Positions 2,704 to 47,608 of a stretch of 64,000 nt of DNA are shown in pieces. The DNA comes from Candidatus Curtissbacteria bacterium RIFCSPHIGHO2_12_FULL_41_17 (lineage in GTDB: Bacteria; Patescibacteriota; Microgenomatia; Curtissbacterales; GWA2-41-24): NCBI GenBank assembly GCA_001774945.1, contig MFBL01000015.1:529-64528 (forward strand), read 5' to 3'. The position numbers and the translations under genes were made by a program. Within the stretch, counting starts at the first letter, position 1, and the number at the start of each line of letters is the position of its first letter. Under the pieces are notes generated by a model. That model worked only from the letters and a program-made list of their open reading frames with translations. It did not search any database and was not told the origin of the DNA.

Positions 2704-2946
2704 TTACTTAGTAATCTGATTCTAACACTACAAACAAAATTATTACACTTTTGATTTAGTAGCGTTACTTGCGCTTGGTTGACTGCCCGTAGTAATTTTG
2801 TTAGAATTCGCATAGATTTTTTAGCTCTAGTATCTAAATTGAGGAGGGGCGCCAAGTGCGCCTTTTTTAATAATAGTTCTGGGTTCATAGATCATAAACT
2901 ATGAACTGTGAACTCAAAACTAAGAACTAAATTCCAGAGGAATTTC

Positions 2947-11531: not shown

Positions 11532-11680
11532 GAGTTTATATTCGCTCGCAGAATACCATCGAGTCAGACTCGACGGATGAATGCGAGAGCGAATACATAC
11601 TTCCGAGGATTGGAAGTATTCTGCTCGCTCATGTAAACTTGAAGAACAATACCGAGGACTCTTAGTCCTCGGAAGTTTAT
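11532..11680 (+). repeat. ~150-nt multi-hairpin intergenic repeat, copy B
   Basis: Same element as 719-865 in inverted orientation. Hairpins lie at 11556-11576, 11598-11618 and 11652-11672, with enclosing stems TATTCGCTCGC/GCGAGAGCGAATA and TAAACTT/AAGTTTA. Confidence 0.85.
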
Positions 11681-14565: not shown

Positions 14566-14657
14566 CCCAAATTTCAAAGAAATTTGGAAAGGAAAAATGC
14601 GAGTGCGCTAAAAGTCCACAATTGTGGACGATTAACAGCACGAGCAATTTTGACGCT
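14566..14657 (+). repeat. conserved structured 5' leader element, copy 1 (shared with tuf)
   Basis: Aligns with 40232-40320. Hairpin CCAAATTTCAAAGAAATTTGG is identical, the second hairpin covaries (GTCCACAATTGTGGAC versus GTTCTCAATAGAAC), and the tail AGCACGAGCAATTTTGACG is identical and abuts the ATG. Confidence 0.8.
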
Positions 14658-14939
14658 ATGCTGCCCTTAGAACTTTCGCAAATTGTGCTTCTTACTGTTA
14701 TTATCATCCTGACAATATTCTTAGTGGTTTTGGGCTTCCAGGTTTTTTTTGTCCTGAAAGATCTAAGACTTACCCTCAAAAGAATGAATCATCTGTTTGA
14801 TGATGCCAATGAACTTGTATCGGAAGTGAAAAAACCTATCGAAAAGGCTGGCAATTTCTTTACAGCATTGACTGCAGGTGCAGGTATTATGCACTTACTT
14901 AAAAAGGGGTCAAAAAATGAGCGATCACGAGAAAAATAA
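14658..14939 (+). CDS. DUF948-like small membrane protein
   Basis: MLPLELSQIVLLTVIIILTIFLVVLGFQVFFVLKDLRLTLKRMNHLFDDANELV shows a transmembrane helix followed by a coiled-coil segment. The start is placed at the ATG that follows the shared leader; the ORF-track TTG at 14622 lies inside the leader hairpin. Confidence 0.6.
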   Translation: MLPLELSQIVLLTVIIILTIFLVVLGFQVFFVLKDLRLTLKRMNHLFDDANELVSEVKKPIEKAGNFFTALTAGAGIMHLLKKGSKNERSREK

Positions 14940-26135: not shown

Positions 26136-27239
26136 TTGAATATCCCAGTGAATAAAATACTCCAAATCGGTCCACCCTTTATTATTATCGCCGCACTACT
26201 TTGGAGTCTTGACGGACTTTTAAGAAGAAGCCTTTTTGTGTTACCCCCGGCTCTTATTGTGTTTTGGGAACATGTTTTAGGTGCAGTTATATTAATACCA
26301 TTTGTCCTTTTTTTAGGTCTGAAACTAGGCAAAATGACCAAGAAAGAATGGCTGGCAATTGTTTTTGTAAGCCTTTTCTCTGGAGCCCTCGGAACTATTT
26401 TTTATACGGCGGCTCTTGGTAAAGTTAATTATATCCAGTTTTCGGTTGTAGCTATGCTGCAGCAGCTTCAGCCAATCTGGACCATTACAACCGCAGCTAT
26501 TATCCTAAAAGAAAAATTGACAGGCAATTTTTTAAGGTGGGCAGCATTGGCACTTATTGCTTCTTATTTTGTTACCTTTAGGGATTTAAAAGTTAATCTT
26601 GAAAGCGGCAGCCAAACAATAGTTGCTGCAGGATTTGCTCTTGCGGCTGGGATGATGTGGGGTTCATCAACCGCATTTTCCAAAGTGGTCTTAAAGCAAG
26701 TTTCGTTTATAACGGCCACTTTTTTAAGGTTTATGGCATTGGCACTTATTGCTTCTTATTTTGTTACCTTTAGGGATTTAAAAGTTAATCTTGAAAGCGG
26801 CAGCCAAACAATAGTTGCTGCAGGATTTGCTCTTGCGGCTGGGATGATGTGGGGTTCATCAACCGCATTTTCCAAAGTGGTCTTAAAGCAAGTTTCGTTT
26901 ATAACGGCCACTTTTTTAAGGTTTATGATAGCACCTATATTTGCCCTGCTTTTTTTAGTTGGTTCAAATAAGGGCAGCAGTCTTTTTGCAATCACATTGC
27001 CTCAGGCATTTACACTGCTTGTTATTACTCTCACAACCGGAATGGTTGCTCTTCTTATTTATTATTTTGGCTTAAAAAAAACACCGGCTAGAGTTAGCAC
27101 AATTTTAGAACTTGTCTGGCCTGCTTCGGCAATTTTTATTGACTATGTTTATTTCAAAAAAACTTTATCGACGACTCAGCTGTTGGGGGTTTTTGTATTA
27201 CTTTTTGCAATTTACCAAGTGTCTAAATTCAAAAAGTGA
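26136..27239 (+). CDS. EamA/DMT-family transporter carrying an internal 64-aa tandem duplication
   Basis: Polytopic membrane protein with EamA-like repeats. The segment ALALIASYFVTF...ATFLRFM occurs twice, identically. Confidence 0.8.
   Translation: MNIPVNKILQIGPPFIIIAALLWSLDGLLRRSLFVLPPALIVFWEHVLGAVILIPFVLFLGLKLGKMTKKEWLAIVFVSLFSGALGTIFYTAALGKVNYIQFSVVAMLQQLQPIWTITTAAIILKEKLTGNFLRWAALALIASYFVTFRDLKVNLESGSQTIVAAGFALAAGMMWGSSTAFSKVVLKQVSFITATFLRFMALALIASYFVTFRDLKVNLESGSQTIVAAGFALAAGMMWGSSTAFSKVVLKQVSFITATFLRFMIAPIFALLFLVGSNKGSSLFAITLPQAFTLLVITLTTGMVALLIYYFGLKKTPARVSTILELVWPASAIFIDYVYFKKTLSTTQLLGVFVLLFAIYQVSKFKK
26544..26927 (+). repeat. perfect 2 x 192-bp in-frame tandem duplication inside the DMT gene
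   Basis: 26544-26735 equals 26736-26927 base for base. The junctions share the microhomology TTTTTTAAGGT (26528, 26720, 26912). Confidence 0.9.
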
Positions 27240-34100: not shown

Positions 34101-34833
34101 CACAGGCGGAATTGTCGGATTAGATATTACCCAAGGTCTGCCGAGGGTAGAGGAACTTTTTGAAGCGCGTACCCCTAAATTTTCAGCTCAAATCACAGAA
34201 ATTGCCGGCAAGGTTAAAATTGAAGAAACGTCAGATGGTAGTGTCGTCAAAGTTAAAAATGCAAACCTTAAACCGCTGGTCGAAAAGGAGTATCTTATTC
34301 CACCTACTTCTGAATTGAAGGTAACAGATGGACAACTTATCGCTGCGGGAGCGCCGCTTTCTGCAGGCTATCTTGATATTAAAGAGATTCTAGCTGTTTC
34401 CGGACTAAGAGAAGCCCAAAAATACCTTATAAGTGAGGCTCAGGAAGTATATGAAACTCAAGGTGTAGCCATTAATGACAAGCATTTTGAGGTTATAGCC
34501 AGAAAAATGAGCGAAAAAGTACGAGTAGAATCATCCGGCGATACAGTTCTATTACCAGGTGAGCTTATAGACAGAAACAGGTTTACGGAAGAGAATGCCA
34601 AGGTTTTAGCCGAAGGAGGAGAACCGGCAACAGCCCAAGTAATAATTTTGGGAATCACCAAGGCCGCACTTTATACCGAAAGTTTCTTATCGGCAGCCTC
34701 ATTTCAAGAAACCACTAGGGTTTTGACTGACGCAGCGATTGAGGGTAAAGTAGACAGGTTGTTAGGATTAAAGGAAAATGTCATAATTGGACGCCTAATT
34801 CCAACTAGTCCTGAAAGAGCAAGGATACAATAG
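31150..34833 (+). CDS. rpoC: DNA-directed RNA polymerase subunit beta'
   Basis: 1227 aa. Zinc motif [23 protein letters not shown], the catalytic [14 protein letters not shown], and the trigger-loop/bridge-helix blocks. Confidence 0.97.
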
Positions 34834-34861
34834 GCGGACAATTATATCAGAGGAGCGTACT

Positions 34862-35344
34862 ATGCCTACTATTAACCAACTTATCAGAAAAGGCAGAAAA
34901 CCAAAAATTAAAAGAGTGAGGGCCACGGCGCTTAGACGTGCCTTTAATTCTCTTAAAAACCGATACGTATACTATCCGGCAAGCCAGAAAAGAGGGGTGT
35001 GTGTGGTTGTCAAAACCATGACTCCCAAAAAACCTAATTCTGCTCTAAGAAAAGTAGCTAGAGTCCGTCTTTCCAATAAGCAGGAAATTACCGCTTATAT
35101 TCCGGGCATTGGTCATGAACTTGCAGAACACTCAGTTGTTTTAATACGGGGTGGTCGCGTCAGAGATCTGCCCGGAGTAAAATATCATGTTATTCGCGGG
35201 AAATATGATACTACTGGAGTAGTTGGCCGAAAGCAAGCAAGATCGCTGTATGGAACCAAAAAATCAGGTGCGGTTACCGGTGCCCAGGCAGCAGCTACAG
35301 TTGGTGCCACCGCAGCCGCAGCGCAGCCACCACCAGAAACTTAA
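34862..35344 (+). CDS. rpsL: 30S ribosomal protein S12 with Ala/Pro-rich C-terminal tail
   Basis: [51 protein letters not shown]. About 25 extra C-terminal residues ([25 protein letters not shown]). Confidence 0.95.
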
Positions 35345-35352
35345 GTATGAAA

Positions 35353-35405
35353 ACTTATCACTTATCACTCATCACTTATCACTTATCACTGCGACCGAAG
35401 GGAGC
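35353..35405 (+). repeat. heptamer array (ACTTATC x5) plus conserved CGACCGAAGGGAGC box upstream of rpsG
   Basis: Units lie at 35353, 35360, 35367 (ACTCATC), 35374 and 35381. The box at 35392-35405 contains the SD. The same architecture occurs upstream of rpsC. Confidence 0.85.
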
Positions 35406-35408
35406 ATC

Positions 35409-35906
35409 ATGCCCAGAGCAGGAAAGGTAGAAAAAAAACAAATTGCTCCGGATCCCCTTTACCAAAGTTCGCTTGTTGCTAAACTAATCAATAAAGTAAT
35501 GGTCAGCGGCAATAAGTCTCTCGCCCAGAGAGTAGTTTATGATGCGCTCGAAAGTTTAAAATCTGGCGGGCAAGATCCAGTCAAAACCCTAGATAAGGCA
35601 GTTGAGAATATTACGCCAAGAATGGAGGTTAGACCAAGAAGGGTTGGCGGTGCATCTTATATGGTTCCCATGGAAGTCAGGGGATCAAGACGGCTTTCAT
35701 TGGCAATTTCATGGCTGGTTAATGCCGCCAGAAGCAGGAAAGCTTCGGACATTACTCCCAAACCTAAGAATAAGCCCTTAATTATTGCCAAGTTGTCCCA
35801 AGAAATACTGCAAGCATCAGAGAATACCGGCAAGGCAGTCGCCAAAAAAGACGAAATGCACCGCATAGCCGAAGCGAACAAAGCTTTCGCCCATTTCAGA
35901 TGGTAA
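35409..35906 (+). CDS. rpsG: 30S ribosomal protein S7
   Basis: MPRAGKVEKKQIAPDPLYQS.LVAKLINKVM..GNKS and ...ANKAFAHFRW. The ATG at 35409 is preceded by AAGGGAGC. The ORF-track start at 35223 lies inside rpsL. Confidence 0.95.
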   Translation: MPRAGKVEKKQIAPDPLYQSSLVAKLINKVMVSGNKSLAQRVVYDALESLKSGGQDPVKTLDKAVENITPRMEVRPRRVGGASYMVPMEVRGSRRLSLAISWLVNAARSRKASDITPKPKNKPLIIAKLSQEILQASENTGKAVAKKDEMHRIAEANKAFAHFRW

Positions 35907-36117
35907 GCCGGAGTTTACACTGAGCTTGTCGAAGTGCGCATTCCCGCTGGTAATGTGCTCAGCCTTGCGGTCCTCGTCCTTCGTTAAACTCAGGACTGCG
36001 GGCCTAAAAGCTTTCGCCCACTTCCGCTGGTAGCGAAATGTGGTTTGCCGCCTTGCGATAGCTCCGCACTACGCGCGTAGTAGCTATCTAAAGGCGTTTG
36101 CACATTTCCGGTGGTAA
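35907..36117 (+). repeat. array of displaced rpsG 3'-end copies separated by GC-rich palindromic inserts
   Basis: KAFAHFRW-stop is re-encoded at 36007-36033 and 36091-36117 with synonymous differences only. A degenerate copy (AHSRW-stop) lies at 35936-35953. Confidence 0.85.
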
Positions 36118-36122
36118 TTTCC

Positions 36123-37067
36123 CTACAACGAGAATAAATCTAGCACTTGCTTTTTTCCTGTCATGGCTAAATCAAATATCTTTTCCCGATCTTGGGAAAT
36201 TCTTGAGATGGGCATCTCGGAAGGAGCAATAATCCCAATATTTATTGAATCTCCATGCAATCCAATTAGCTCTGCCGCTCGCGAATATTGTTTATGTCTT
36301 GCTAACATAGCAGTTCTAAATTCGGAGGAAAACTTACGCATATATACACTTGTAAGTAAACGTTCTAATAAACTGGCCCCATTTGCTCGCTCGCCTACAG
36401 TATTATTCAAAACCACCAATATATCTGTACACCCTTCCTGTATTGCTAAATCGATTGGAATACCATTCCCTATAGAACCATCACTGTACTTTTTTCCATT
36501 AATACTTATGGTACGGTTATAAACAATAGGAAATGCCGAGGAAGCGATGACTACTTTGACAATATCACACTCCTCTTTCACATCTATAAACTCACTTTTG
36601 CCCGTTTGGGCATCCGTAACGACAATAAAAAAACTCGAACGGGATGACCTAATTGTTTCCTGATCAAGCGGTTTTGTCTTTCGCATTATGTGTTCAGCAT
36701 AATCAAGGTCTAAAACACGCCTTAGACGCCTAACATCGATGAATCTTCTGTCCACTAAATCTTCATGCCAAAGCGAAGCTCCTAACTCTGTCTGTTTAGC
36801 AAGAAAATAAGCAAGGTCAGCAGCCCCAGACGAAACACCGACAACAACATCAAAAGTGTCATGGAAACCCAATTGTTCTAGGCCAACAAGTACTCCGGCA
36901 CCAAATGCTCCACGCACCCCACCGCCACCCATTACTAATGCGGTTTTAATCCTCTCGTGTGTATTGTCACCTTGATCAAGCAGTCTCTTTTTCTCAAGTA
37001 AATTTCTCACGAGCGTTGAATTTCTCGCTGATTCACCTTCTAAAACTTTGGAGCGTAATCTTTCCAT
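36123..37067 (-). CDS. patatin-like phospholipase
   Basis: Oxyanion motif GGGGVRGAFGAGVL, nucleophile elbow GVSSGA (GxSxG), and the catalytic Asp context DGSIGNGIP. Confidence 0.85.
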   Translation of the reverse strand: MERLRSKVLEGESARNSTLVRNLLEKKRLLDQGDNTHERIKTALVMGGGGVRGAFGAGVLVGLEQLGFHDTFDVVVGVSSGAADLAYFLAKQTELGASLWHEDLVDRRFIDVRRLRRVLDLDYAEHIMRKTKPLDQETIRSSRSSFFIVVTDAQTGKSEFIDVKEECDIVKVVIASSAFPIVYNRTISINGKKYSDGSIGNGIPIDLAIQEGCTDILVVLNNTVGERANGASLLERLLTSVYMRKFSSEFRTAMLARHKQYSRAAELIGLHGDSINIGIIAPSEMPISRISQDREKIFDLAMTGKKQVLDLFSL

Positions 37068-37287
37068 GGCTAAAATTGTAGCAAAAATAGTTCTTTAAGA
37101 GAAAAATCTTCTCTCTTGCATACTCATTTAACTTAAGATATAATTCCCGACTAGTTTGTACTTATCTGCCGGTCTTCGACCCTGAGGGCTCAGACCCGAA
37201 TGGGCAGGCAGGCGCCTGTCAAACGCCTAATTTAGCTTCCGCCTGGCTAAATCCAAAGAAGAATTTTTATATTTGGGAAATGATATA

Positions 37288-37316
37288 TTGACTTTTGGCA
37301 GGGTTTTATTGATAAA
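37288..37316 (+). promoter_or_regulatory. candidate promoter TTGACT-17-GATAAA
   Basis: TTGACT at 37288-37293, a 17-nt spacer, and GATAAA at 37311-37316, upstream of the ORF at 37328. Confidence 0.3.
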
Positions 37317-37327
37317 AGAGTAAGATC

Positions 37328-37606
37328 ATGAAAATAATTTCATTATCAAAGGCACAAAAACTGAAAAGCCTTAGAAAAAAACTCACGGAGCTTGAGGAAG
37401 TTAAGCTAAAAGAGGCTTTGGCTAAGTATGGGGAAGCCTACCAGGAGTCAGGAGCGGCCTGGCAGGAAAATGCCGCCTGGGAGCTGGCAGACGAAGAAGT
37501 GTCGGTTATTCGGGCAATGATTTCGGAAATAAAAAGAGAAATCACCGGTTTGGAACATCCTCTTCCTACTACTTCCATCCCGCTCACTATTAAAAAACAA
37601 AAATAA
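37328..37606 (+). CDS. small coiled-coil protein (hypothetical)
   Basis: 92-aa ORF of helical, charged sequence. No family recognised. Confidence 0.45.
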   Translation: MKIISLSKAQKLKSLRKKLTELEEVKLKEALAKYGEAYQESGAAWQENAAWELADEEVSVIRAMISEIKREITGLEHPLPTTSIPLTIKKQK

Positions 37607-37642
37607 TCCAAATTAGAAAAATATATGACGCAAACTGCTGAT

Positions 37643-37791
37643 CAATTTATTTTCGCTTCGCGAAAACCGTGGATTATTAATCCTCGGATGAAGCGAAGGG
37701 AAAACATACTTCCAAGGAAGTTTGGAGCCTAGACCAAAGACGAATGATATGATAGGTGAAAACCGAGGGTTCTTAACTCTCGGAAGTTTAT
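37643..37791 (+). repeat. ~150-nt multi-hairpin intergenic repeat, diverged copy C
   Basis: Collinear with copy B, with the same stem positions but different stem sequences (TTCGCTTC/GAAGCGAA, CCGTGGATT/AATCCTCGG, ACTTCC/GGAAGT, CCGAGGGTT/AACTCTCGG). The terminal CGGAAGTTTAT is identical. Confidence 0.7.
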
Positions 37792-37833
37792 TTTGCAACA
37801 CAAAAAGACATATTTAGCTTGGAGGAAAAAATA

Positions 37834-39975
37834 ATGGCCGAAAAACAAGCCAGACTTTATTCGCTGGACAGAATAAGAAATATAGGCATCATTGCTCATA
37901 TCGACGCGGGAAAAACGACCACTACCGAGAGAATCCTTTTTTACACAGGTAGGACCTATAAACTCGGAAATATCGATGAAGGCACCACCGTTACCGACTG
38001 GATGGCTCAGGAAAAAGAAAGGGGAATTACGATTGTATCGGCTGCCGTAACAACATTTTGGAAACCCAAAGATGGCCCGTTTGCCAACATTGACACACGT
38101 ATAAACATTATTGACACCCCGGGGCATGTCGATTTTACTGCCGAGGTTGAAAGATCACTGCGTGTTCTAGATGGAGGAGTCACCGTTCTTGATGCAGAAG
38201 AGGGGGTCCAGTCACAATCGGAAACAGTCTGGCGCCAAGCCGACAAATATAAAGTTCCCCGTATTTGTTTCGTTAATAAGATGGATAAAATCGGCGCAGA
38301 TTTTTTCGCAACGCTCTCCTCGATCCGCAAAAAATTACAGGCACCGGCAGTTGCCTACAATTTACCAATCGGCAAGGAAAATGATTTTAAGGGAGTTATC
38401 GATTTACTAACACAAAAGGCCTATATTTGGGAAGAAGAGGCTGTCAAAAAAGGAGGAATGGATTTTGTCAAGGTACCCATCCCAAGTGAATTGCTTGCTG
38501 AAACCGAAAAACATAGAGCCCACTTAATTGAAAAAATTGCAGAATGTGACGATAGTCTTGTGGAAAAATACCTTAAGGGTGAAGAATTGGGAATAGACGA
38601 ACTTAAATCAGCACTTCGACGTGCAGTCATCGAATATAAAATAGTTCCCGTGCTTGCAGGTTCCAGTCTACGCAATAAAGGTGTTCAAATGCTTCTTGAC
38701 GCAACTGTAGAATACTTACCTTCTCCTTTAGATATAGAAACGGTAGAGGGTATTAATCCTAAAACAGGTGAGAAGGAGATCCGCAAACAAGTAGTCGAAG
38801 CTCCATTTTGTGCCTTGGCATTTAAAGTCCAGATCGATCCGCATGTCGGTAAATTAAATTTCATCAGAATTTATTCGGGAACACTAAAATCCGGTACTTC
38901 TGTTTTGAATACGACAAAAAGGGAACATGAAAGAGTCGGCAGAATTTTACTAATGCATGCCAATACCAGAGAAGAGATTGCCGAAGCATACGCAGGAGAA
39001 ATTGTGGCAGTTGTCGGACTTAAATCAACCACCACAGGAGACACGCTCTGCGCTGAAAATTCTCCGATTATTTTAGAATCGATTTCGTTTCCGGACCCGG
39101 TCATTTCACTGGCAATTGAGCCAAGTACAAAGGCTGATCAGGAGAAACTTGGTTACGCTTTGGGCCGGCTTTCCGAGGAAGATCCGACGTTTAAGATTAA
39201 AGGTGATCCGGAAACCGGGCAAACAATTATTTCCGGAATGGGAGAACTGCATCTGGAAATCCTGGTTGACAGAATGAAGAGAGAGTTTGCAGTCGCTGCC
39301 AAAGTCGGCAGTCCGCAAGTTGCTTACAAGGAAACCATTAGAGAAACAGGCAGAGGTGAAGGTAAATATATTCGGCAGTCCGGTGGCAGAGGCCAATACG
39401 GGCACTGTTTTTTGAGGGTTGAGCCTAATCCTCGCGGTGAGGGTTATCAATTCGTTTCCGAGATTAGAGGTGGCGCTATTCCGCAAGAGTTTATTTCCTC
39501 AGTAGAAAAAGGAGTTCGCGAAAAAATGGAAACCGGGGTTTTAGCTGGATATCCGATGGTCGATATAAAGGTAGCAGTTTATGATGGTACTTATCATGAC
39601 GTTGACTCTTCCGATATTGCTTTTAAAATCGCCGGCTCTCTTGCTTTGGAAGAAGCCGTCAAAAATGCCAGTCTTGCGCTTTTGGAACCGATCATGAAAG
39701 TGGAAGTGACCATTCCCGAAGAATTCATGGGTGATGTAATTGGGGATTTATCTGCCAAGCGTGCTCAAATACTTTCAAGCGAACATCGGGCAAACAGCGT
39801 GATTATTACAGCCCTTGTGCCGCTTGCAGAGATGTCCGGCTATGTTACAACTCTTAGGTCTATGACTCAAGGGAGAGGATCAGCATATATGGAACCGTCA
39901 CATTACGAAGAAGTTCCCCAGAGTATAGCAGACAAAATCGTAGCAAGGGCCAAAGGTGAGGTAAAAGAAAGTTAG
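37834..39975 (+). CDS. fusA: elongation factor G
   Basis: [40 protein letters not shown]. The ATG at 37834 is preceded by GGAGG. The ORF-track TTG at 37819 would include the SD. Confidence 0.95.
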
Positions 39976-40024
39976 TAAAGAGTTTACCATGAACGAAGTC
40001 GCGTCAGACGCGACGAAGTGAAGG

Positions 40025-40072
40025 GCCGATAAAATAGTCGCAAAGGTTAAGGGTGAAACTAACCAAAGCTGA
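40025..40072 (+). repeat. displaced second copy of the fusA 3' end
   Basis: Encodes ADKIVAKVKGETNQS-stop, compared with the genuine end [15 protein letters not shown]-stop at 39928-39975. Confidence 0.8.
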
Positions 40073-40089
40073 CAATGTGATTTAGTCAA

Positions 40090-40150
40090 TGCAAGAAGTA
40101 TTAGAAGCTTTTGGTACCTGTGGTACTTTTAAATCTTCCTCTTGCATTTT
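40090..40150 (+). terminator. candidate intrinsic terminator after fusA
   Basis: A long imperfect hairpin TGCAAGA...(GTACC-TGT-GGTAC)...TCTTGCA, followed by TTTT. Confidence 0.35.
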
Positions 40151-40231
40151 GTTGTCAGAATAATATAAACTATTCCAACTAATATCAGCCTGTCAGGTTT
40201 TAACTTGGCAAAAAGCCTGATATTATTTTTA

Positions 40232-40320
40232 CCCAAATTTCAAAGAAATTTGGAGAGGAAAAATTTGAGTGCGTTTAATGTTCTCAATAGAACATGAATA
40301 GCACGAGCAATTTTGACGAC
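40232..40320 (+). repeat. conserved structured 5' leader element, copy 2 (tuf)
   Basis: See 14566-14657. An SD-like GGAGAGG is followed by a short uORF whose TGA overlaps an in-frame ATG at 40294. Confidence 0.8.
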
Positions 40321-41505
40321 ATGGCAGCAGAAAAATTTGAACGAACAAAACCACACGTAAATATTGGCACGATTGGCCATGTTGATCATGGTAAAACTAC
40401 GCTGACCAGTGCTATTACTCAGGTCCTATCCAAAAAAGGTCTGGCTCAGGCGAAATCCTTTGATCAGATAGATAATGCCCCGGAAGAGAAACAAAGAGGA
40501 ATTACTATTAATATTACTCATGTGGAGTACGAAACGGAAAAGCGTCACTATGCCCACATTGATGCCCCCGGCCATGCCGACTACATCAAAAACATGATTA
40601 CAGGTGCCGCCCAAATGGACGGTGCAATTCTGGTTGTAAGCGCTCCGGACGGGCCGATGCCGCAGACGAGAGAGCATGTTCTTTTGGCCAGACAGGTAAA
40701 CGTTCCGGCAATCGTAGTTTTTCTAAACAAAACGGATATGGTTCAGGATGCAGAACTTTTGGATCTTGTGGAACTTGAGGTGCGCGAACTTCTGGATAAA
40801 TATCAGTTTGATGGAAAAAATGCGACAATCATTCGCGGTTCGGCACTTAAAGCGATTGAAGGAGATGCACAAGCCGTTAAAGCGATTGAAGACTTAATGG
40901 CCGCAGTTGATGAAAAAATCCCCACTCCCGCAAGGGATTTAGACAAACCTTTCCTGATGCCGGTTGAAGATGTCTTTTCCATAAAAGGCCGAGGGACTGT
41001 TGTTACAGGCAGAGTTGAACGGGGCGTTATAAAAGTCAATGAGGAGATCGAAATTGTCGGAATTAGACCTACAAAAAAAACTATTGTAACAGGAGTAGAA
41101 ATGTTTAGAAAAGAGCTAGACCAGGGACAAGCCGGTGACAATATCGGCGTACTACTTCGAGGGATTGAAAAAGATGACGTTGAAAGAGGGCAGGTTTTGG
41201 CAAAGCCCGGCTCGACAACACCGCATACCGAATTCGAGGCAGAGGTGTATATCCTAACTAAAGAAGAAGGCGGACGACACACCCCCTTCTTTACCGGTTA
41301 TAGACCCCAGTTTTATATAAGAACGACCGATGTTACCGGAGAAGCAACTCTTCCCGAAGGAACAGAAATGGTTATGCCGGGAGACAATATTAAAATGAAA
41401 GTTAAACTTATCGAGCCGGTTGCTATGGAAGAAGGACTTAGATTTGCCATCCGCGAGGGTGGCCACACAGTAGGCGCCGGCGTAGTCAGCAAGATAATTG
41501 CGTAA
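40321..41505 (+). CDS. tuf: elongation factor Tu
   Basis: [41 protein letters not shown]. The start is placed at the canonical EF-Tu N-terminus. The alternative ATG at 40294 would add MNSTSNFDD. Confidence 0.95.
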
Positions 41506-41545
41506 GAGATTTGGGTCTCCTCAGAGCTTGCCAGAAGGCCGTAGG

Positions 41546-41576
41546 CCCTGAGCTTGCGAAGGGGGGATTTTTTTTG
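41546..41576 (+). terminator. candidate intrinsic terminator after tuf, built from a CCTGAGC..CGAAGGGG repeat
   Basis: CCCT..AGGGG stem followed by a T8 run (GGGGGGATTTTTTTT). Confidence 0.35.
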
Positions 41577-41936
41577 CTAGAATACCTTACTTTTGTCATT
41601 CTCGCGAAAGCGAGAATCCAGATTCTCAGTCAAGTCTTCGACCGTGAGTCCCAAAGAGACTCCGCTCAGACCGAATCGGCTGAGAATGACATGAGGGGGT
41701 CTTGGCGAAGGATTGTTCGAGCGAAGTCGAGAACTATTAAAGTATGTCAATAATAAGATTTTACTTCAAGCCTAACCGCTTAAGAATCTAACTTCTCAAC
41801 TCGACAATTCCGCTCGAAGATTATCAATTGCTGTCCGAAAGGAATTGTGATTTTGAATTTTGCCTGCCTGCCGGCAGGCAGGCACTTTAAATTTTACTTC
41901 TTGCGAAGCAAAACCTCGTAAGATCATTAAACGTCA

Positions 41937-42245
41937 ATGCCAAAAGGAAGAATCAGAGTCAAAATTAAAGCATATGATGCACGGGTAATCGATGCGGCCT
42001 GTCGTGACATAATCAATACCGCGCTTTCAACAGGCGCGAAGATTTCCGGTCCAATACCGCTACCGACCAAGATTGAAAGATTTATAGTCCTTACCAGTCC
42101 GCACACCGATAAAGACGCCCGTGAACAGTTTGAAATGAGAATTCATAAGCGTCTGATAGACATAATCGAACCAACGAATAAGACAATTGATAGTTTGACT
42201 CATTTGGACTTACCTGCCGGTGTGGATATAGAACTCAAGATGTAG
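41937..42245 (+). CDS. rpsJ: 30S ribosomal protein S10
   Basis: [40 protein letters not shown]...[12 protein letters not shown]. Confidence 0.95.
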
Positions 42246-42253
42246 GTTAATTT

Positions 42254-42289
42254 CTAATTGTCCTAATTAACCTAATTGACCTAAATAAT
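42254..42289 (+). repeat. 9-bp tandem array (CTAATTNNC x4) after rpsJ
   Basis: CTAATTGTC CTAATTAAC CTAATTGAC CTAAATAAT. Confidence 0.7.
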
Positions 42290-42497
42290 TTAAAATTAGG
42301 AAATTGGGATTTGTTTAGAAATTATAAATTGTCAAAATGGAGGTATTAAAAACTAACAACTAAATATACAATTTAACGATTAACCACAAGCGATTTGCGT
42401 TAATCGGTGGGACACCTGAAAATCCTGAGCTCGTCGAAGGAATAATTTTAAGGTATCCTACTTTTTTAGTATTTATTTGGTGAATGAAGGAGTAAAG

Positions 42498-43310
42498 ATG
42501 ATAAATAGCCTAATGGGTTTAAAACTGAATATGACAGCAAGATTTGATAAGTGGGAACATCGTGTTCCGGTTACTTTAATCAAAGCTGATCCTAACGTCA
42601 TTCTGTCGCAAAAAGATGGAAAGGTTGAGCTCGGCTTCGGTCGAAGAAAGAAGGTAAAAAAAACCCAGAATGCGCATGTTTCGGTTGCCGGGTTTGCTCC
42701 GAGATTTATTAAAGAAGTGACAACTGGCGAATCCAATTTTGCTTCCGGAGACAAAGTTACAGTTTCAGTTTTTGAGCCGGGAGATTTAGTTAAAGTCACC
42801 GGGATCACCAAAGGTAAAGGTTTTGCCGGTGGTGTTAAGAGATGGGGTTTTGCTGGAGGACCCAAAACCCACGGTCAGTCCGACCGCCATCGTGCGCCAG
42901 GTTCCATCGGCCAAACAACAACACCGGGCAGAGTTTTTAAAGGTAAAAAAATGGCCGGTCACTTGGGTGCTTCAAAAAAAACAATAAATAATTTGGAAGT
43001 CCTTGAAGTAGACAGTGAGAACAACTTATTAGTCATCAAAGGTTCCGTGCCTGGTGCCAGAATGGGGCTTTTGCTAATCACCAAAACTGGTAAGGCAAAA
43101 GCCGTGCCTGCCGGCCCGCCTCGCGAGGCGAGCAGACAGGGATACACGCTGCCACCTTCACCAAAAGAAGATGAAAAGCAAGATAGACAAACAACAAAAA
43201 AAGAAACAAGCAAGCAAGATGAGAACCAGCAAGTAACCACAAAAGAAAATCGAAAAGGTGATAGAAAATCAGAGGAAAAGGAGAAAGAAAATGCCACAGA
43301 AAATCAGTAA
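42498..43310 (+). CDS. rplC: 50S ribosomal protein L3 with ~60-aa K/E/Q-rich C-terminal extension
   Basis: MINSLMGLKLNMT..., GITKGKGFAGGVKRWGF.GGPKTHGQSDRHRAPGSIG. The ATG at 42498 is preceded by AAGGAG. Confidence 0.92.
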   Translation: MINSLMGLKLNMTARFDKWEHRVPVTLIKADPNVILSQKDGKVELGFGRRKKVKKTQNAHVSVAGFAPRFIKEVTTGESNFASGDKVTVSVFEPGDLVKVTGITKGKGFAGGVKRWGFAGGPKTHGQSDRHRAPGSIGQTTTPGRVFKGKKMAGHLGASKKTINNLEVLEVDSENNLLVIKGSVPGARMGLLLITKTGKAKAVPAGPPREASRQGYTLPPSPKEDEKQDRQTTKKETSKQDENQQVTTKENRKGDRKSEEKEKENATENQ

Positions 43311-44046
43311 AAAGATACGCCAAAAAATATCAATTAAAAAGACACAAATAAGTCAAGAAATGCATTCAAAAAAAATAGAAAGTAACAAAATAACCAAACC
43401 AATTTCTAAAAAATTAACACAGAAAGTTAAGGTAACGACCAACTTTCCCGTTTTTGATATTAATGGTGCAAAACAAGGTGTAATAAATTTACCGAAAGAA
43501 ATTTTTGGACAAGAGCCCAATAAATTATTACTGGCACAAGCAGTAAGGGTTTATCTGGCGAATATGTCAACCCATAAATCATCGACTAAAACTCGTGCAG
43601 AAGTTCGTGGTGGAGGGACTAAACCCTGGCGGCAAAAAGGAACAGGTAGGGCAAGGGCCGGATCTATCAGATCACCACTTTGGGTTGGTGGAGGTGTAGT
43701 TTTTGGACCAAAACCTAGAAATACCAAGCTAATACTTTCTAAAAAAATGAAGAAAAGGGCCCTAATAAGCGCCCTTTCTTTTAAAAACGCCGACGGCGCA
43801 GTCAAGGTAATTTCAAATTTTGAAAAGTTGGAACCAAAAACAAAGCAGGCGCAGCAACTTCTTAACAAACTCGAAATTCATGGCAGAACATTAATAATCC
43901 TGGAAGATACAAAACCGAATGTAAAGCTTGCAACCAGAAATATTCCCGGCCTTTCTGTCGATTTGACGGCAAACCTCAATGCTTATGAAGTTCTAGCCCA
44001 CAATAATTTACTCTTTTCTAAAAGTGCAATCGAGGACATAAAATGA
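43291..44046 (+). CDS. rplD: 50S ribosomal protein L4 with lysine-rich N-terminal extension
   Basis: [43 protein letters not shown]. The ATG at 43291 is preceded by AAGGAG and overlaps the rplC tail. The exact start is uncertain. Confidence 0.88.
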
Positions 44047-44417
44047 AACAAGCAAGTTTAATTGAAAAAGCTCTGCAATCCGAAAAAGCCTACAAACAGA
44101 TGACCAGCGGCATCTATACATTTGTGGTTGCGCAGTCTGCTAAAAAAAAGCAAATAAAAAAACTTATTGAAAATCAGTTTTCCGTAAAGGTTAAAAAGGT
44201 AAATATGGCCAAATTTGCCCCAAAGAGGAAAAGAATTGCCAAAAGTCGAAAAACAACAGCAGTTGGCGGAGGCAAAAAGGCCATTGTCTATCTTAGGGAA
44301 GGTCAGGAAATTGCCATGTTTATGCCCAAAAGGACAGAAAAAAATAAAAAACAGCAGTTAAAAGGCGTTAAAGAAAAAGAAACCGAGCAAGTTTCTGCAG
44401 AAGGGAAAGAACTATAG
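44043..44417 (+). CDS. rplW: 50S ribosomal protein L23 with K/E-rich C-terminal tail
   Basis: YTFVVAQSAKKKQIKKLIENQFSVKVKKVN... Correct operon position between rplD and rplB. Confidence 0.88.
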   Translation: MKQASLIEKALQSEKAYKQMTSGIYTFVVAQSAKKKQIKKLIENQFSVKVKKVNMAKFAPKRKRIAKSRKTTAVGGGKKAIVYLREGQEIAMFMPKRTEKNKKQQLKGVKEKETEQVSAEGKEL

Positions 44418-44540
44418 TGGTAGTCCAAATTTTTAAAAAAACTAAAATTAAATTTGAATCTGGCTTTGCCAGTTCAAATTTGTCCATTGGAGAAAGAGGA
44501 ATACCAAGGGGAAACCTTGGTTTTCCCTTGGAGTAAATAC

Positions 44541-45362
44541 ATGTCTCTTAGGGTTTTTAAACCGCAAACACCAGGACAAAGATTTAAATCAATTCTGGAA
44601 AATAAAGTAATTACTAAATCTAAACCTGAAAAGACTTTATTGATTCCTCTTCCTAAATCTTCTGGAAGATCTCATGGAAGAGTAACAGCAAAGGGTCGGG
44701 GCGGAAGACATAAAAGAAATCTAAGGTTAATCGATTTTAAGCGAGATAAAAGGGAGATTCCTGCGGTAGTTGCCGCTATCGAGTATGATCCGAATAGAAG
44801 CGCCTCAATTGCCCTTTTACACTACAAGGACGGGGAAAAAAGATATATTCTATCCCCAGTCGATCTTAAAGTCGGTGATGAGGTCGTCGCCGGCCAGAAG
44901 GTAGAGATAAAACCAGGCAATGCTCTTGAGATTGGCAAAATCCCGATTGGGACTGTTGTCCATAATCTTGAACTTATTCCCGGTCGCGGCGCACAAATTG
45001 TCAGAAGCGCAGGCACAGGCGCGATTATATCCGCAAAAGAAGGCCAGTGGGTACATGTAAAATTGCCTTCAAAAGAAATCCGCAAGATTCACGGCAAATG
45101 TTATGCAGCCATTGGTCAAATAGGCAATGAAGATTGGAAAAATATCACTTTCGGAAAGGCTGGCAAATCACGTCATTTCGGAATTAAACCCCATGTTAGA
45201 GGTGTAGCAATGGATCCAAGATCACACCCCCATGGCGGTGGTGAAGGAAAATCAGGAACAGGTATGAACCCGAAGACTCCAAGCGGAAAACGAGCTTTTG
45301 GAAAGACCAGAAAGAAAACTAAACTATCTACGAAGTTCATACTGCAAAGAAGGAGAATTTAA
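44541..45362 (+). CDS. rplB: 50S ribosomal protein L2
   Basis: [15 protein letters not shown]..., [22 protein letters not shown]. The ATG at 44541 is preceded by GGAG. The ORF-track start at 44454 lies in the structured spacer. Confidence 0.95.
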
Positions 45363-45366
45363 AAAA

Positions 45367-45651
45367 ATGAGCAGATCAATCAAAAAAGGTCCATATATTG
45401 ACAAGAAGCTTATTAAAAAGGTTTTAGCCCAAAAAGAATCCGCTAAAAAAGAACCGATTAAAACCTGGGCAAGGGCAAGTCAAATTCCGCCTGAATTTGT
45501 TGGGCATACATTTGCTGTTCACAACGGACGAATTTTTATTAATGTATTTGTCTCGGAACCCATGGTAGGTCATAGATTGGGGGAATTTGCCCCTACCAGA
45601 ACTTTTAGAGGTCATGGCAAGATAACAGAAAAATCATCTGCTAAAAAATAA
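45367..45651 (+). CDS. rpsS: 30S ribosomal protein S19
   Basis: [12 protein letters not shown]..., [31 protein letters not shown]. Confidence 0.95.
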
Positions 45652-45653
45652 GT

Positions 45654-46070
45654 ATGAATCAAATTACAGCTTACGCAAAAAATATCAGAATATCCGGGCA
45701 AAAGATCTTTCTTGTGGTAAATCAAATTAAAAAAATGAAACCGACTGATGCGGTAAAAATTTTGGACTTCGTCCCTAACAAGTCGTCAAAGATTATTAAA
45801 AAAGTATTGCTCTCTGCAATGGCCAATGCCCGTAACAATTTTGGGCATAAAGATGAGTCTTTACTTATTAAAGAGATAATAATCTCAAAAGGACCGGTGT
45901 TTAAGAGGTCCCGGGCTGTTGCCAGAGGAAGGGTTCACCCTATTTTAAAAAGAACAACCCACATCAAAGTCATACTTGAGGCAGAAGAGACTAAAGAAGT
46001 ACCAAAGGCACCAGAAGTATCAAAAGGCGAAGACCCGAAATCAAATATTAAAAATCAAAAATCAAAATGA
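45654..46070 (+). CDS. rplV: 50S ribosomal protein L22 with C-terminal tail
   Basis: AKNIRISGQKIFLVVNQIKKMKPTDAVKILDF...ARGRVHPILKRTTHIKVIL. Confidence 0.92.
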   Translation: MNQITAYAKNIRISGQKIFLVVNQIKKMKPTDAVKILDFVPNKSSKIIKKVLLSAMANARNNFGHKDESLLIKEIIISKGPVFKRSRAVARGRVHPILKRTTHIKVILEAEETKEVPKAPEVSKGEDPKSNIKNQKSK

Positions 46071-46100
46071 CAAATCAAAATTCAAAAATATTTTTAAATA

Positions 46101-46147
46101 ACTATTCACTATTCACTATTCACTATTCACTACCGACCGAAGGGAGC
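46101..46147 (+). repeat. heptamer array (ACTATTC x4) plus CGACCGAAGGGAGC box upstream of rpsC
   Basis: Units lie at 46101, 46108, 46115 and 46122. The 14-nt box at 46134-46147 is identical to 35392-35405. Confidence 0.85.
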
Positions 46148-46151
46148 TGTC

Positions 46152-46790
46152 GTGGGCCAAAAGGTTAATCCAATTGGATTTAGATTAGGAAACGTCTATA
46201 CTTGGAGCTCTAGATGGTTTGCTTCTGGTAAAATCTACTCCCAGTATCTTTTAGAAGATCGCCAACTTCGTCAGTTTCTAATGTTAAGACTAAAAAGTGC
46301 TGGTATTGCAAAAGTCGAAATTGAACGATCATTTGACAAAAGAACAATTATTGTTCATGTTTCCCGTCCCGGAATTGCTATTGGTCGCGGCGGAACAGGG
46401 ATCGAGCAGTTAAAAGAAGAATTGATTAAAAAATTTAAAATCCAAGACCCCAAAAAATTAGAAATAAAATTTGAAGAAATTAAAAATCCAGACTTGGATG
46501 CTTATCTTATTGCTGCAAACGTTGCAGACCAGCTGGAGAGAAGAATCCCATTTAGAAGAGTAATCAATCAAGCCTTAGAAAGGATAAAAAGATCCGGAGC
46601 AAAAGGAGCCAGAATATCAGTTTCAGGCAGGCTTGGCGGTTCAGAAATTGCCAGAACCGAAACTTTAAAATTTGGGGCGATTCCACTCCATACGATTCGG
46701 GCAAATATTGATTTTGCCAAAATAGATGCAAAAGTGCCCAAATCAGGAGTAGTAGGAGTTAAATCCTGGATTTATAAGGGCGAAACATAG
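46152..46790 (+). CDS. rpsC: 30S ribosomal protein S3
   Basis: GTG start. MGQKVNPIGFRLG..., KH-like IAIGRGGTGIEQLK, SGRLGGSEIARTE. Confidence 0.95.
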   Translation: MGQKVNPIGFRLGNVYTWSSRWFASGKIYSQYLLEDRQLRQFLMLRLKSAGIAKVEIERSFDKRTIIVHVSRPGIAIGRGGTGIEQLKEELIKKFKIQDPKKLEIKFEEIKNPDLDAYLIAANVADQLERRIPFRRVINQALERIKRSGAKGARISVSGRLGGSEIARTETLKFGAIPLHTIRANIDFAKIDAKVPKSGVVGVKSWIYKGET

Positions 46791-46958
46791 TTTCGTCCTT
46801 GCGAGAATTTCGCTTCTATTGAAATAGCTTTTTCAATAGAGCTCCATTCTTTAAAAAGCAACTATTATGAGAAGTAATAATTGGAAATTGGAAATTACTC
46901 GCCGCAAGCGAGTTTCGAGTCGAAATGGAAATTGGAAATTCCTCCGAAGGAGGGTTAT

Positions 46959-47363
46959 ATGCTAGCGCCAAAACGAGCAAAATATCGAAAGCAATTCAGA
47001 AACAACATAAAAGGTTTATCAAGATCCAGAACTTCTCTTGTATTTGGGTCTTGGGGTTTAAAGAGTTTAGAGCTTGGATGGATTACTGCAAGGCAGATTG
47101 AGGCCGCACGAAGAGCTATGACTCATTATACAAAAAGAGGAGGTAGAATTTGGATTAGAGTTTTTCCGGATAAACCCGTGACAAAAAAGCCATCAGAAAC
47201 AAGAATGGGTTCCGGAAAAGGTGATGTTGATCATTATGTAGCTGTAGTAAAACCCGGAACTATAATTTTTGAAATGGGAGCTGTTACAAATGAGACAGCA
47301 AATGAGGCAATGAGACTCGCATCTCATAAATTACCCATTAAAACATTAATTATCTCAAAATGA
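46959..47363 (+). CDS. rplP: 50S ribosomal protein L16
   Basis: [15 protein letters not shown]..., [42 protein letters not shown]. The ATG at 46959 is preceded by GGAGGG. Confidence 0.95.
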
Positions 47364-47608
47364 AAAAAAAGGATTTAATGGAACTTAAAAATAAAAATAT
47401 TGAAGAGATCCAGAAAAAAATTGATCAGTTGGTAAGTGAAATCGTAGTCAACAAGCTCGAATTAAAAATGGGAAAGTTAAAGAATGTACATCTAATAAGT
47501 AAAAAAAAGAAGGATCTGGCACGTCTCGAAACTATTTTAAAACTTAAATATTTTGCGATAAAACCTAACATATCTGAAAAGAAAGTAAAGAAAAATGTCA
47601 CAAGTTAA
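47360..47608 (+). CDS. rpmC: 50S ribosomal protein L29
   Basis: Position between rplP and rpsQ. Helical, lysine-rich, 82 aa, with [16 protein letters not shown]... Confidence 0.85.

Follow-up and report, generated by a model that had tools for sequence, protein, structure and literature searches.

Heptamer arrays joined to a putative Shine-Dalgarno mini-hairpin upstream of ribosomal protein genes in Candidatus Curtissbacteria

Why are the ribosome-binding sites (RBSs) of essential ribosomal protein (r-protein) genes preceded by short and regular tandem repeats of seven nucleotides? This question is raised by a 64-kb stretch of DNA from an uncultured groundwater bacterium, Candidatus Curtissbacteria (in the following termed the window), in which the genes rpsG and rpsC, coding for the ribosomal proteins S7 and S3, each follow a heptamer array and an identical 14-nt box that includes the Shine-Dalgarno (SD) sequence. 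We read array and box together as a composite initiation leader that is specific to Curtissbacteria and some other Microgenomates, and its anatomy, its reproducibility among assemblies, its conservation, the linkage of box and array, the covariation of base pairs, and the evolutionary turnover of the whole cassette can be directly observed. As to its biological role, we tentatively favor, with a probability of roughly 0.45, a lineage-specific leader in which a slippage-generated heptamer microsatellite is fused to a conserved SD mini-hairpin and would serve as a largely structure-free spacer or standby track.

Arrays and boxes in the window

At rpsG, the array (array A, 35353..35390, plus strand) consists of 5.4 copies of ACTTATC, the third of which reads ACTCATC, and it contains no G; Tandem Repeats Finder (TRF), with which the tandem arrays were scored, assigned it a score of 69 at 93% matches. 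It starts 8 nt past the rpsL stop codon (35342-35344), fills the rpsL-rpsG spacer, and is followed by a single G, the box CGACCGAAGGGAGC (35392-35405), the triplet ATC, and the ATG start codon at 35409 of rpsG (35409..35906, plus strand; MPRAGKVEKK..., PF00177). At rpsC, 30 A/T-rich nt separate the rplV stop codon (46068-46070) from array B (46101..46132, plus strand), which comprises 4.6 copies of ACTATTC, is likewise G-free, and has a TRF score of 64 at 100% matches. Here the order continues with a C, the same box CGACCGAAGGGAGC (box B, 46134..46147, plus strand), TGTC, and the GTG start codon at 46152 of rpsC (46152..46790, plus strand; the protein opens with MGQKVNPIGFRLG; PF07650, PF00189). 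Both arrays are thus non-coding, lie between a stop codon and the next RBS, and end 18-19 nt before the start codon, with the canonical SD GGGAG between array and start. A preliminary description of this DNA had claimed this arrangement for both genes, including the SD within the box, and sequence and TRF bear it out exactly. A consensus scan of the window predicted no promoter or terminator at the arrays.

The exact 14-mer CGACCGAAGGGAGC occurs in the window only at these two places, and when up to two mismatches are permitted, there are three matches, as compared to 0.23 expected, with none of 100 shuffles reaching three. By our own arithmetic, the recurrence of some 14-mer pair within 64 kb is not improbable by itself, and the significance of the box therefore comes from its position 4-5 nt before two r-protein starts and behind a period-7 array in the same phase, together with its conservation across species. 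A dispersed-repeat family containing the box or the arrays was not found inside the window. The rpsG and rpsC leaders are identical at every base in 10 + 10 independent assemblies (ENA, JGI, NCBI, Logan; different assemblers), and the arrays are therefore not a collapsed low-complexity artefact, a possibility that the preliminary description had raised itself. The arrays are short and A/T-rich, which could invite the suspicion of chance or assembly collapse, but the 20 identical assemblies, the shuffles, and the orthologous conservation described below leave practically nothing of it. Two DNA-level interpretations were also discarded. DnaA-box or ctx-type DNA-binding heptads do not fit, as the units are unlike the DnaA box and the arrays are located inside operons and not at promoters. 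A phase-variable contingency repeat does not fit either, as the downstream genes are essential r-protein cistrons, no polymorphism is seen, and the arrays lie outside any promoter prediction.

The layout of a heptamer array, a mini-hairpin with the SD as 3' arm, and a start codon is common to four genes of the window, the other two being rplP and nusA. The rplP leader arrays (46880..46940, plus strand) consist of two copies of GGAAATT (46880-46896), a GC-rich, palindromic 30-nt insert ACTCGCCGCAAGCGAGTTTCGAGTCGAAAT (46897-46926), and again two copies of GGAAATT (46927-46940). They are followed by the rplP box (46941..46953, plus strand) with the sequence CCTCCGAAGGAGG, a predicted SD mini-hairpin with Watson-Crick pairs only (-7.3 kcal/mol), which is conserved in the related loci L102 and L107, where an uninterrupted array of four AGAAATT units occupies the site. 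The true start of rplP is the ATG at 46959, not the TTG at 46881. The insert is single-copy in the window and in all fetched DNA, which rules out a multi-copy mobile element. The nusA leader (2897..2942, plus strand) has 4.9 copies of GAACTNN (2897-2930) and then TTCCAGAGGAA, a mini-hairpin TTCC-AGA-GGAA (2932-2942, -2.1 kcal/mol), in front of an ATG at 2947; the NusA domains were confirmed. A single 64-kb window thereby contains the heptamer units ACTTATC, ACTATTC, GGAAATT, and GAACTNN. The preliminary description had correctly noticed the related box before rplP, and it overlooked the heptamers in front of that box as well as the fourth case at nusA.

The box as a conserved, probable mini-hairpin linked to arrays

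In its EF-G, the window matches Candidatus Curtissbacteria bacterium RIFCSPHIGHO2_02_FULL_40 (Microgenomates, Candidate Phyla Radiation (CPR)/Patescibacteria) at 100% identity. For comparison with relatives, fusA-centered loci with 10-kb flanks were taken from species-representative genomes and metagenomes, contigs of the closest EF-G clusters were included, and upstream regions were extracted via tblastn, which together gave 184 loci with about 2.6 Mb of DNA (loci are given as L numbers). In this material, the exact 13-mer CGACCGAAGGGAG occurs only at RBSs, namely at rpsG in the window, L103, and L111, at rpsC in the window and in the Microgenomates genome L115, whose EF-G is 69% identical, and at rpsH in L101. 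The identical 14-mer is present at rpsG of L103 and L111 although the S7 proteins are only 65-70% identical. In general, the adjacent proteins are 65-78% identical and the spacing from SD to start varies, while the box stays exact, which argues for a constraint on the box. A recent duplication as origin of the two identical window boxes is ruled out by the 13/14-mer at rpsG of L103 and L111 and by junctions that are gene-specific across species, ACTAC-CGA at rpsC and TG-CGACC at rpsG; as judged from these sequences, the identity of the two boxes reflects conservation and not a recent copy. Variants of the box in relatives read UGAUCGAAGGGAG, CGAUCGAAGGGAG, CGACCAAAGGGAG, CGACCGGAGGGAG, CGACUGAAAGGAG, CCCGAC(A/G)AAGGAGGG, and CCUCCGAAGGAGG, and they are preceded by arrays of ACTTATC, ACTATTC, ACTTTTC, TTTTCAA, GGAAATT, AGAAATT, or TTTAAAT/TTGAAAT units.

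The box has the general form NN-CGAC(C)-GAA-(G)GGAG-N'N', in which the SD sequence forms the 3' arm of a putative hairpin. At rpsG, the box A mini-hairpin (35390..35406, plus strand; -5.4 kcal/mol) comprises the 5' arm UG-CGACC, a GAA loop, and the 3' arm GGGAG-CA with the SD GGGAG, pairing as U-A, G-C, C-G, G.A, A.G, C-G, and C-G. The core is the same at rpsC, where the outer flanking pair is mismatched (C/C). In 18 distinct instances, CGAC (or CGAU/UGAU) always stands opposite GGAG in the order C-G, G.A, A.G, C-G, which corresponds to a tandem sheared G.A motif. The alternative 5' arm is CUCC, which forms four Watson-Crick pairs with GGAG, and no intermediates were seen between the two arms. 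The inner C-G pair accompanies the additional G of GGGAG, and in the rplP box of L101 a C-to-U exchange comes with a G-to-A exchange. The loop varies from 3 to 5 nt (GAA, AAA, GGA, UGAAA, UAAAA) with the arms being kept, and the nucleotides flanking the box pair mutually as G-C, C-G, U-A, or G-U. In a gap-free alignment of ten instances, 94% of the cells are paired, as compared to 80% in shuffles (0/500 as high), the covariation score is 0.458 versus 0.204 in shuffles (again 0/500), and pairing falls to 32-64% in slid registers. Two flanking pairs change on both sides, being of GC/CG/UA and UA/AU/CG types, respectively. The comparison thus supports a mini-hairpin that contains the SD and has covarying flanks, and that may form also in vivo. 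Stable RNA structure across the whole leaders was rejected, with folding z-scores of +0.07 to +1.24 (+0.4 and +1.2 for the rpsG and rpsC leaders), and the leaders had no Rfam match at the gathering threshold, nor at E<=5 across 34800-47400.

Is the array linked to this particular box, or do both occur independently, as the preliminary description had considered? The linkage was determined with 98 leaders of nine r-protein genes from 17 Curtissbacteria-level loci. Neither element is found in 71 leaders, only an array in 4, only a box in 7, and both in 16, and box and array are thus clearly not independent (Fisher's P = 9e-10, which has to be taken as an upper bound on the strength of evidence, since the 98 leaders, like the 10-18 hairpin instances, share phylogeny and the P-values overstate their independence). 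Four of the seven leaders with only a box have arrays that are split by an insert. Among the nine genes, the pair of array and box occurs only at rpsG, rpsC, rplP, and rpsH, and where box-like matches lie away from a start codon (30 cases), an array is always absent.

The arrays themselves show inheritance as well as turnover. Orthologous ACTATTC/ACTTTTC arrays are found at rpsC of L103, L107, and L111; the unit at this gene differs by species, ACTATTC versus ACTTTTC, with each array being internally homogeneous. ACTTATC units occur at rpsG in 5.4 copies in the window and in 2.6 copies in L111, and rpsG of L106 has four copies of ACTTTTC. The two main unit families, TTTTCAM and TTGRAAA, are roughly reverse complements of each other, and every box-adjacent unit with at least two G/C positions uses either C only or G only. 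As the junctions are gene-specific, the cassettes are most likely inherited vertically in the main. They nevertheless appear at changing genes: GGAAATT arrays with a box are located at rplP in the window, at rpsC in L101, L102, L115, and L018, and at rpsH in L002 and L102, and ACT-type arrays with a CGAC box occupy rpsG and rpsC of the window as well as rplP of L101, where a cassette resembling that of rpsG (...ACTCATCACTCACCACTAAACTACTG-CGACTGAAAGGAGC-ACC-ATG, with ACTCATC..CTG before CGACTGAAAGGAGC) is found. At rpsC of L101, whose EF-G is 89% identical, a GGAAATT cassette adjoins a leftover CACTATT. This distribution indicates that cassettes are exchanged between genes among related species. 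Short GC-rich, hairpin-forming inserts split the arrays not only at rplP of the window, but also at rpsC of L101, L103, and L111 and at rpsH of L002 and L101, and the inserts in relatives are unrelated in sequence to one another. The cassette is absent at rpsG of L002, L102, L104, L105, and L108 and at rpsC of L002, L104, and L108; in L102 (EF-G 85% identical), for example, the S12-S7 spacer is reduced to 8 nt. Such cassette-free junctions are compact or overlapping, which means that the cassette lengthens the spacer. In L096 (3700-3930), a 222-nt difference between rpsC and rplP holds a run of N and represents a scaffolding gap, not a biological insertion.

Period-seven repeats and other peculiarities of the loci

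Period 7 stands out in these loci in general. The CPR loci (804 kb) contain 48 period-7 arrays with at least three copies, as compared to 3.2 in Markov-1 simulations, which is an about 15-fold excess, and no other period gave more than 12 arrays. The other loci (669 kb) contain 77 period-7 arrays. Heptanucleotide repeats have been described as the most over-represented long simple-sequence repeats (SSRs) in many prokaryotes, with polymerase slippage as proposed origin (Mrazek, Guo & Shah 2007, in so far as summarized in PMC4679880 and PMC4692102). Direct TAACTGA repeats upstream of start codons are known from Beggiatoaceae, cyanobacteria, and Bacteroidetes, and they occur also internally in r-protein operons, at fusA and at the genes for L3, S4, and S1 (MacGregor 2015, PMC4679880). 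Our literature search returned no report on heptamer arrays in Patescibacteria. The statement in the preliminary description that such arrays are no standard feature therefore needs to be qualified, as the heptamer excess and start-proximal heptamers in r-protein operons are already in the literature, whereas its idea of a repeat-generating process tied to the box is in part supported by the period-7 excess, by copy-number differences between species, and by the linkage of array and box.

How similar are the arrays to these known repeats? Short tandemly repeated repetitive (STRR) heptamers are reported from heterocystous cyanobacteria (Mazel 1990). Like heptanucleotide SSRs and STRRs, the arrays described here are intergenic and consist of few to several 7-nt units in head-to-tail orientation, period 7 is dominant, each genome has its own families of units, related genomes diverge in the length and sequence of the arrays, and inverted pairs exist in some cases. 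In contrast to SSRs and STRRs, they are short (2-5 copies), are found in Patescibacteria, and a subset of them is fused to one conserved SD hairpin and restricted to four r-protein cistrons. With the TAACTGA repeats they share the position on the sense strand just 5' of start codons, including the interior of r-protein operons, which in the window concerns the rpsL-rpsG, rplV-rpsC, and rpsC-rplP junctions, and the GAACTNN unit at nusA, like GAACTGA/GAACTAA of Acidobacteria, is nearly the TAACTGA unit. However, the single unit TAACTGA dominates the BOGUAY genome, where its repeats extend over the expected RBS and few canonical SDs occur (PMC4679880), whereas there are several unit families here and the array stops 1-2 nt before a canonical SD box in a conserved mini-hairpin. 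The G-rich GGGAATC/GGGGAYT heptamers of Xanthomonas and Nostoc form quadruplexes (Rehm 2015, PMC4692102), which is impossible for the A/T-rich arrays described here with their C-only or G-only units.

Some loci of Acidobacteriota metagenome-assembled genomes (MAGs) are especially rich in heptamers. L040, L041, L054, L065, and L072 have 5-19 arrays per roughly 22 kb of r-protein region, some of them reaching 12-19, with the units GAACTNN (GAACTGA/GAACTAA), AGCTNNN, GTCCCTA, and GTTATAG, which are found directly 5' of the RBSs of rpsG, rpsJ, rplP, and rplN. They often form inverted pairs around a GC-rich core and end just 5' of a T-rich segment with a GAGG RBS. We know of no published description of these Acidobacteriota arrays.

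Further repeats are present as well. An AAATCAA period-7 array with 7.6 copies (46038-46089) crosses the rplV stop codon (46068-46070), so that heptamers also encode the end of L22, a C-terminal tail of low complexity (...KSNIKNQKSK*). A 9-nt array of 3.4 copies of CTAATTGAC (42254-42288) lies directly past the rpsJ stop codon, about 190 nt upstream of rplC, and heptamer arrays, with CAATTGA among the units, are likewise found in the long S10-L3 spacers of relatives. The last 26 nt of rpsG (35880-35905, ...KAFAHFRW*) are repeated at 36007-36032 and 36091-36116 with 88% and 77% identity, interleaved with GC-rich hairpin-like segments, and the same pattern follows rpsG in L103; judging by the sequence, this looks like serial insertions that each regenerated the 3' end of the gene. 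A dispersed element of the type ATATCAGAGGAGCG-[variable hairpin]-GCGACCTGCTGATAT occurs seven times in Curtissbacteria loci (L002, L101, L102, twice in L103, L106, L107). It shares the words GGAGCG and GCGACC with the box, in opposite order, and in the rpsL leader of the window (34844-34857) only its left half is present, where it supplies the SD. The tuf leader together with the first codons (CCCAAATTTCAAAGAAATTTGGA...ATGAATAGCACGAGCAATTTTGAC, 40232-40323) is duplicated about 25.7 kb upstream at 14566-14660 with 79-87% identity, before an open reading frame (ORF) at 14878. A 192-nt tandem duplication with 96-100% identity (26520-26903) is located within an ORF for an EamA-family transporter (26136-27239). 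Four copies of a terminator-like hairpin family, ACCGAGGACTCTTAGTCCTCGGAAGTTTAT, are found at 723-755, 11648-11680, 37663-37695, and 37759-37791, and many other spacers hold ...CCTGAGC..GTCGAAGG... palindromes.

With respect to gene content, the window covers nusA-infB-rpsO-pnp, ftsK, alaS, rpoBC, the str, S10, and spc r-protein clusters, and the genes for RNase Y and HU. The str operon is broken between rpsG and fusA by a gene for a patatin-like phospholipase on the minus strand (36123-37067) and a 92-aa ORF without Pfam match (37328-37606), and relatives carry different genes at this spot. The S12 protein encoded at 34862-35344 has 160 aa, including an Ala/Gln/Pro-rich C-terminal extension of roughly 36 aa over the typical length, and its counterparts in relatives have 162-164 aa. 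L001, L003, L004, and other loci come from Microgenomates MAGs that are titled 'uncultured Gammaproteobacteria' or 'Pseudomonadales'; with an EF-G identity of 65-82% to Curtissbacteria, they are probably mislabeled.

Possible roles of the array and rival explanations

What could be the use of a heptamer array directly in front of an SD hairpin? Arrays A and B are 32-38 nt long, G-free, and have a predicted minimum free energy (MFE) of 0, which holds for 14-17% of GC-matched controls, and 9 of 17 related box-adjacent arrays have an MFE of 0, versus 12-44% of the controls. These predictions are suggestive of a selection for a structure-free tract. In ribosome standby (de Smit & van Duin model), translation from an RBS stem-loop is strongly enhanced when a single-stranded tail of CA or AU repeats, 16-18 nt in length, adjoins the stem-loop on its 5' side (Sterk, Romilly & Wagner 2018, PMC5934652). 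The leaders described here would resemble that arrangement, with the array as a predicted single-stranded and repeat-like tract of C, A, and U, at least 16-18 nt long, in front of a putative RBS stem-loop. In the composite leader that we propose, the heptamer microsatellite abutting the 5' side of the box would arise, homogenize, and change its copy number by slipped-strand processes. The cassette would lengthen an otherwise compact intercistronic junction, would be inherited at a given gene, would sometimes be lost, and would sometimes be copied to the RBS of another r-protein cistron. The array would be kept because it provides 30-40 nt of single-stranded, largely structure-free RNA, lacking either G or C, immediately in front of an SD that is partly sequestered. 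There, 30S subunits, or ribosomes that terminate on the upstream cistron, might land or stand by, with the outcome that S7, S3, L16, and S8 are still efficiently initiated across a long spacer.

Several aspects weigh against this proposal, in addition to the shared phylogeny mentioned above. With predicted energies of -2 to -7 kcal/mol, the box hairpins are weak and do not surpass shuffled versions of their own short sequences, and at rpsC the box hairpin differs from the predicted MFE structure. The evidence for the hairpin is thus comparative and not energetic, and with such weak hairpins a standby site may not be needed; the RBS hairpins of the studied standby systems are stable and clearly inhibitory, whereas those described here are small and weak. 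At rpsH, the TTTAAAT/TTGAAAT arrays are self-complementary, with a predicted folding energy of about -6 kcal/mol, and the arrays of L102, L107, and Acidobacteria that occur as inverted pairs would form long hairpins. Close relatives have the same genes without any cassette, which is therefore dispensable. Finally, copy-number polymorphism is absent at the consensus level among the 20 assemblies, which apparently represent one near-clonal population in which rare variants may exist, and ongoing slippage is therefore a putative process; the slippage polymorphism for which the preliminary description had suggested a comparison of array lengths was not observed. Its suggestion of an unstructured standby site thus holds in so far as the two focal arrays are G-free with an MFE of 0 and the box is a small SD hairpin, and it is weakened by a hairpin energy of only about -5 kcal/mol and by related arrays that do fold.

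Which other explanations deserve consideration? The simplest would be that microsatellites just expand in the only unconstrained stretch between stop codon and RBS, that the box is the RBS of this lineage, and that the arrays have no function at all. We regard this as doubtful, albeit well worth considering. An excess of period 7 pervades these loci, extends over several phyla, and has been described for prokaryotes (Mrazek 2007, as summarized in PMC4679880 and PMC4692102). Array A occupies the whole rpsL-rpsG spacer, the junctions of array-free relatives are compact or overlap, there is free variation in unit, orientation, and copy number, and the folding of some arrays shows that the structure-free property is not universal. 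However, functionless arrays would not be expected to be tied to one RBS type and four genes instead of occurring in spacers generally, to persist at the same junction where the proteins are only 65-75% identical, or to restrict box-adjacent units with at least two G/C positions to C only or G only. A somewhat less probable explanation, which overlaps with the composite leader, is a selfish, SD-carrying RBS cassette that is tolerated in operons and spreads by ectopic gene conversion or a transposition-like process. The same cassette types at different genes in different species and the CACTATT remnant beside the incoming GGAAATT cassette at rpsC of L101 would agree with such a mobility, and the frequent splitting of arrays by GC-rich palindromic inserts resembles small dispersed repeats of cyanobacteria. 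Elhai et al. are reported to have described such repeats in 2008 as being embedded in heptamer arrays of Nostoc. Unlike those, the inserts found here are mutually dissimilar and the window insert is single-copy in the fetched DNA, so that no dispersed mobile family is seen. The gene-specific junctions, which indicate mostly vertical inheritance, the limitation to four target genes, the lack of terminal repeats, target-site duplications, or an associated enzyme, and the lack of further copies in the window also speak against a mobile unit.

It is rather improbable that the leader is an operator at which an RNA-binding protein, be it an r-protein, S1, a cold-shock-domain protein, or a CsrA-like protein, coordinates the translation of S7, S3, L16, and S8 by binding either the tandem-G.A hairpin or the array in its 7-nt register. 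The 5' arm and the loop of the box are conserved beyond the needs of an SD, and the same box recurs at four cistrons that belong to three classical operons. Proteins commonly recognize tandem sheared G.A pairs, and the conserved tandem-G.A hairpin may leave room for a protein ligand. For the TAACTGA repeats, a binding of S1, cold-shock protein (Csp), or CsrA and a translational role have been proposed (MacGregor 2015, PMC4679880). However, the array units differ, and their two main families read approximately as reverse complements, which hardly agrees with a single sequence-specific single-strand binder; an arm with ordinary Watson-Crick pairs can take the place of the G.A arm, and the cassette is absent in close relatives. 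In contrast to autoregulatory r-protein leaders of the S7/str, L4/S10, or S8/spc type, the cassette is not conserved at the orthologous site across the clade and matches no Rfam leader family. The autoregulatory protein- or RNA-binding platform of the preliminary description thus found no direct support, given the lack of an Rfam leader, the variation of units and orientation, and the near relatives that do without the cassette. An extended SD interaction without any hairpin, in which the whole of CGACCGAAGGGAG pairs with a 16S rRNA whose 3' tail is unusually long or divergent, is quite unlikely. It would need a tail complementary to CGACCGAA, beyond the ordinary ...CACCUCCUUUCU-type 3' end, and none of the fetched loci contains a 16S rRNA gene. 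Many other leaders do read (U)CCGAA(A)GGAGG, which would suit a tail ...CCUCCUU(U)CGG, but CGAC and GGAG are separated by anything from 3 to 5 nt, either CGAC or CUCC can make up the 5' arm, and linear pairing with a fixed rRNA would not cause the mutual covariation of the flanks. Hardly any weight can be given to an intercistronic processing site, at which an RNase Y-like enzyme would cut the A/U-rich single strand beside the hairpin and thereby let parts of the operon differ in stability. The window does contain an RNase Y gene (60711-62171), and the cassettes lie inside long r-protein operons without predicted promoter or terminator, but the array sequences are too varied for a specific cleavage signal. 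C-rich, G-free units are moreover untypical of known RNase Y sites.

A more far-reaching version of the composite leader, which we consider improbable, would be that the 7-nt register is no by-product of slippage but the footprint of a conserved module that binds single-stranded RNA, for instance the OB folds found in S1, a protein with a cold-shock domain, or the 30S platform itself. Heptamer arrays would then be translational landing pads across phyla (Patescibacteria, Acidobacteriota, Beggiatoaceae), and in Curtissbacteria their fusion to a tandem-G.A SD hairpin would yield a portable RBS cassette that coordinates the synthesis of S7, S3, L16, and S8 and moves between the cistrons.

What does the composite leader contribute to the understanding of heptamer repeats? 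Heptanucleotide intergenic repeats, including start-proximal ones, were already known, and they have been recognized since 1990 and 2007 as the most over-represented tandem repeats in many bacteria, with origin and function being unsettled. New are the conserved tandem-G.A SD hairpin, the strict linkage of array and box at four r-protein cistrons, and the exchange of cassettes between cistrons in CPR bacteria. The locus offers a clean handle on the matter, as four essential cistrons have arrays that adjoin a conserved, covarying SD hairpin, and relatives provide natural 'mutants' in which the array has another unit or copy number, is split by an insert, is swapped between genes, or is absent. 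Gene calling is affected as well, since the starts of rplP, and of the S7 and S3 genes in relatives, are mis-called through arrays. If the arrays are neutral, it still holds that the compact operons of CPR bacteria tolerate repeat-plus-RBS cassettes and pass them between cistrons. If they are standby or spacer tracks, this would explain why heptamers cluster immediately 5' of RBSs in three phyla, and it would add a translation-initiation device to the CPR bacteria, in which gene expression is almost unstudied.

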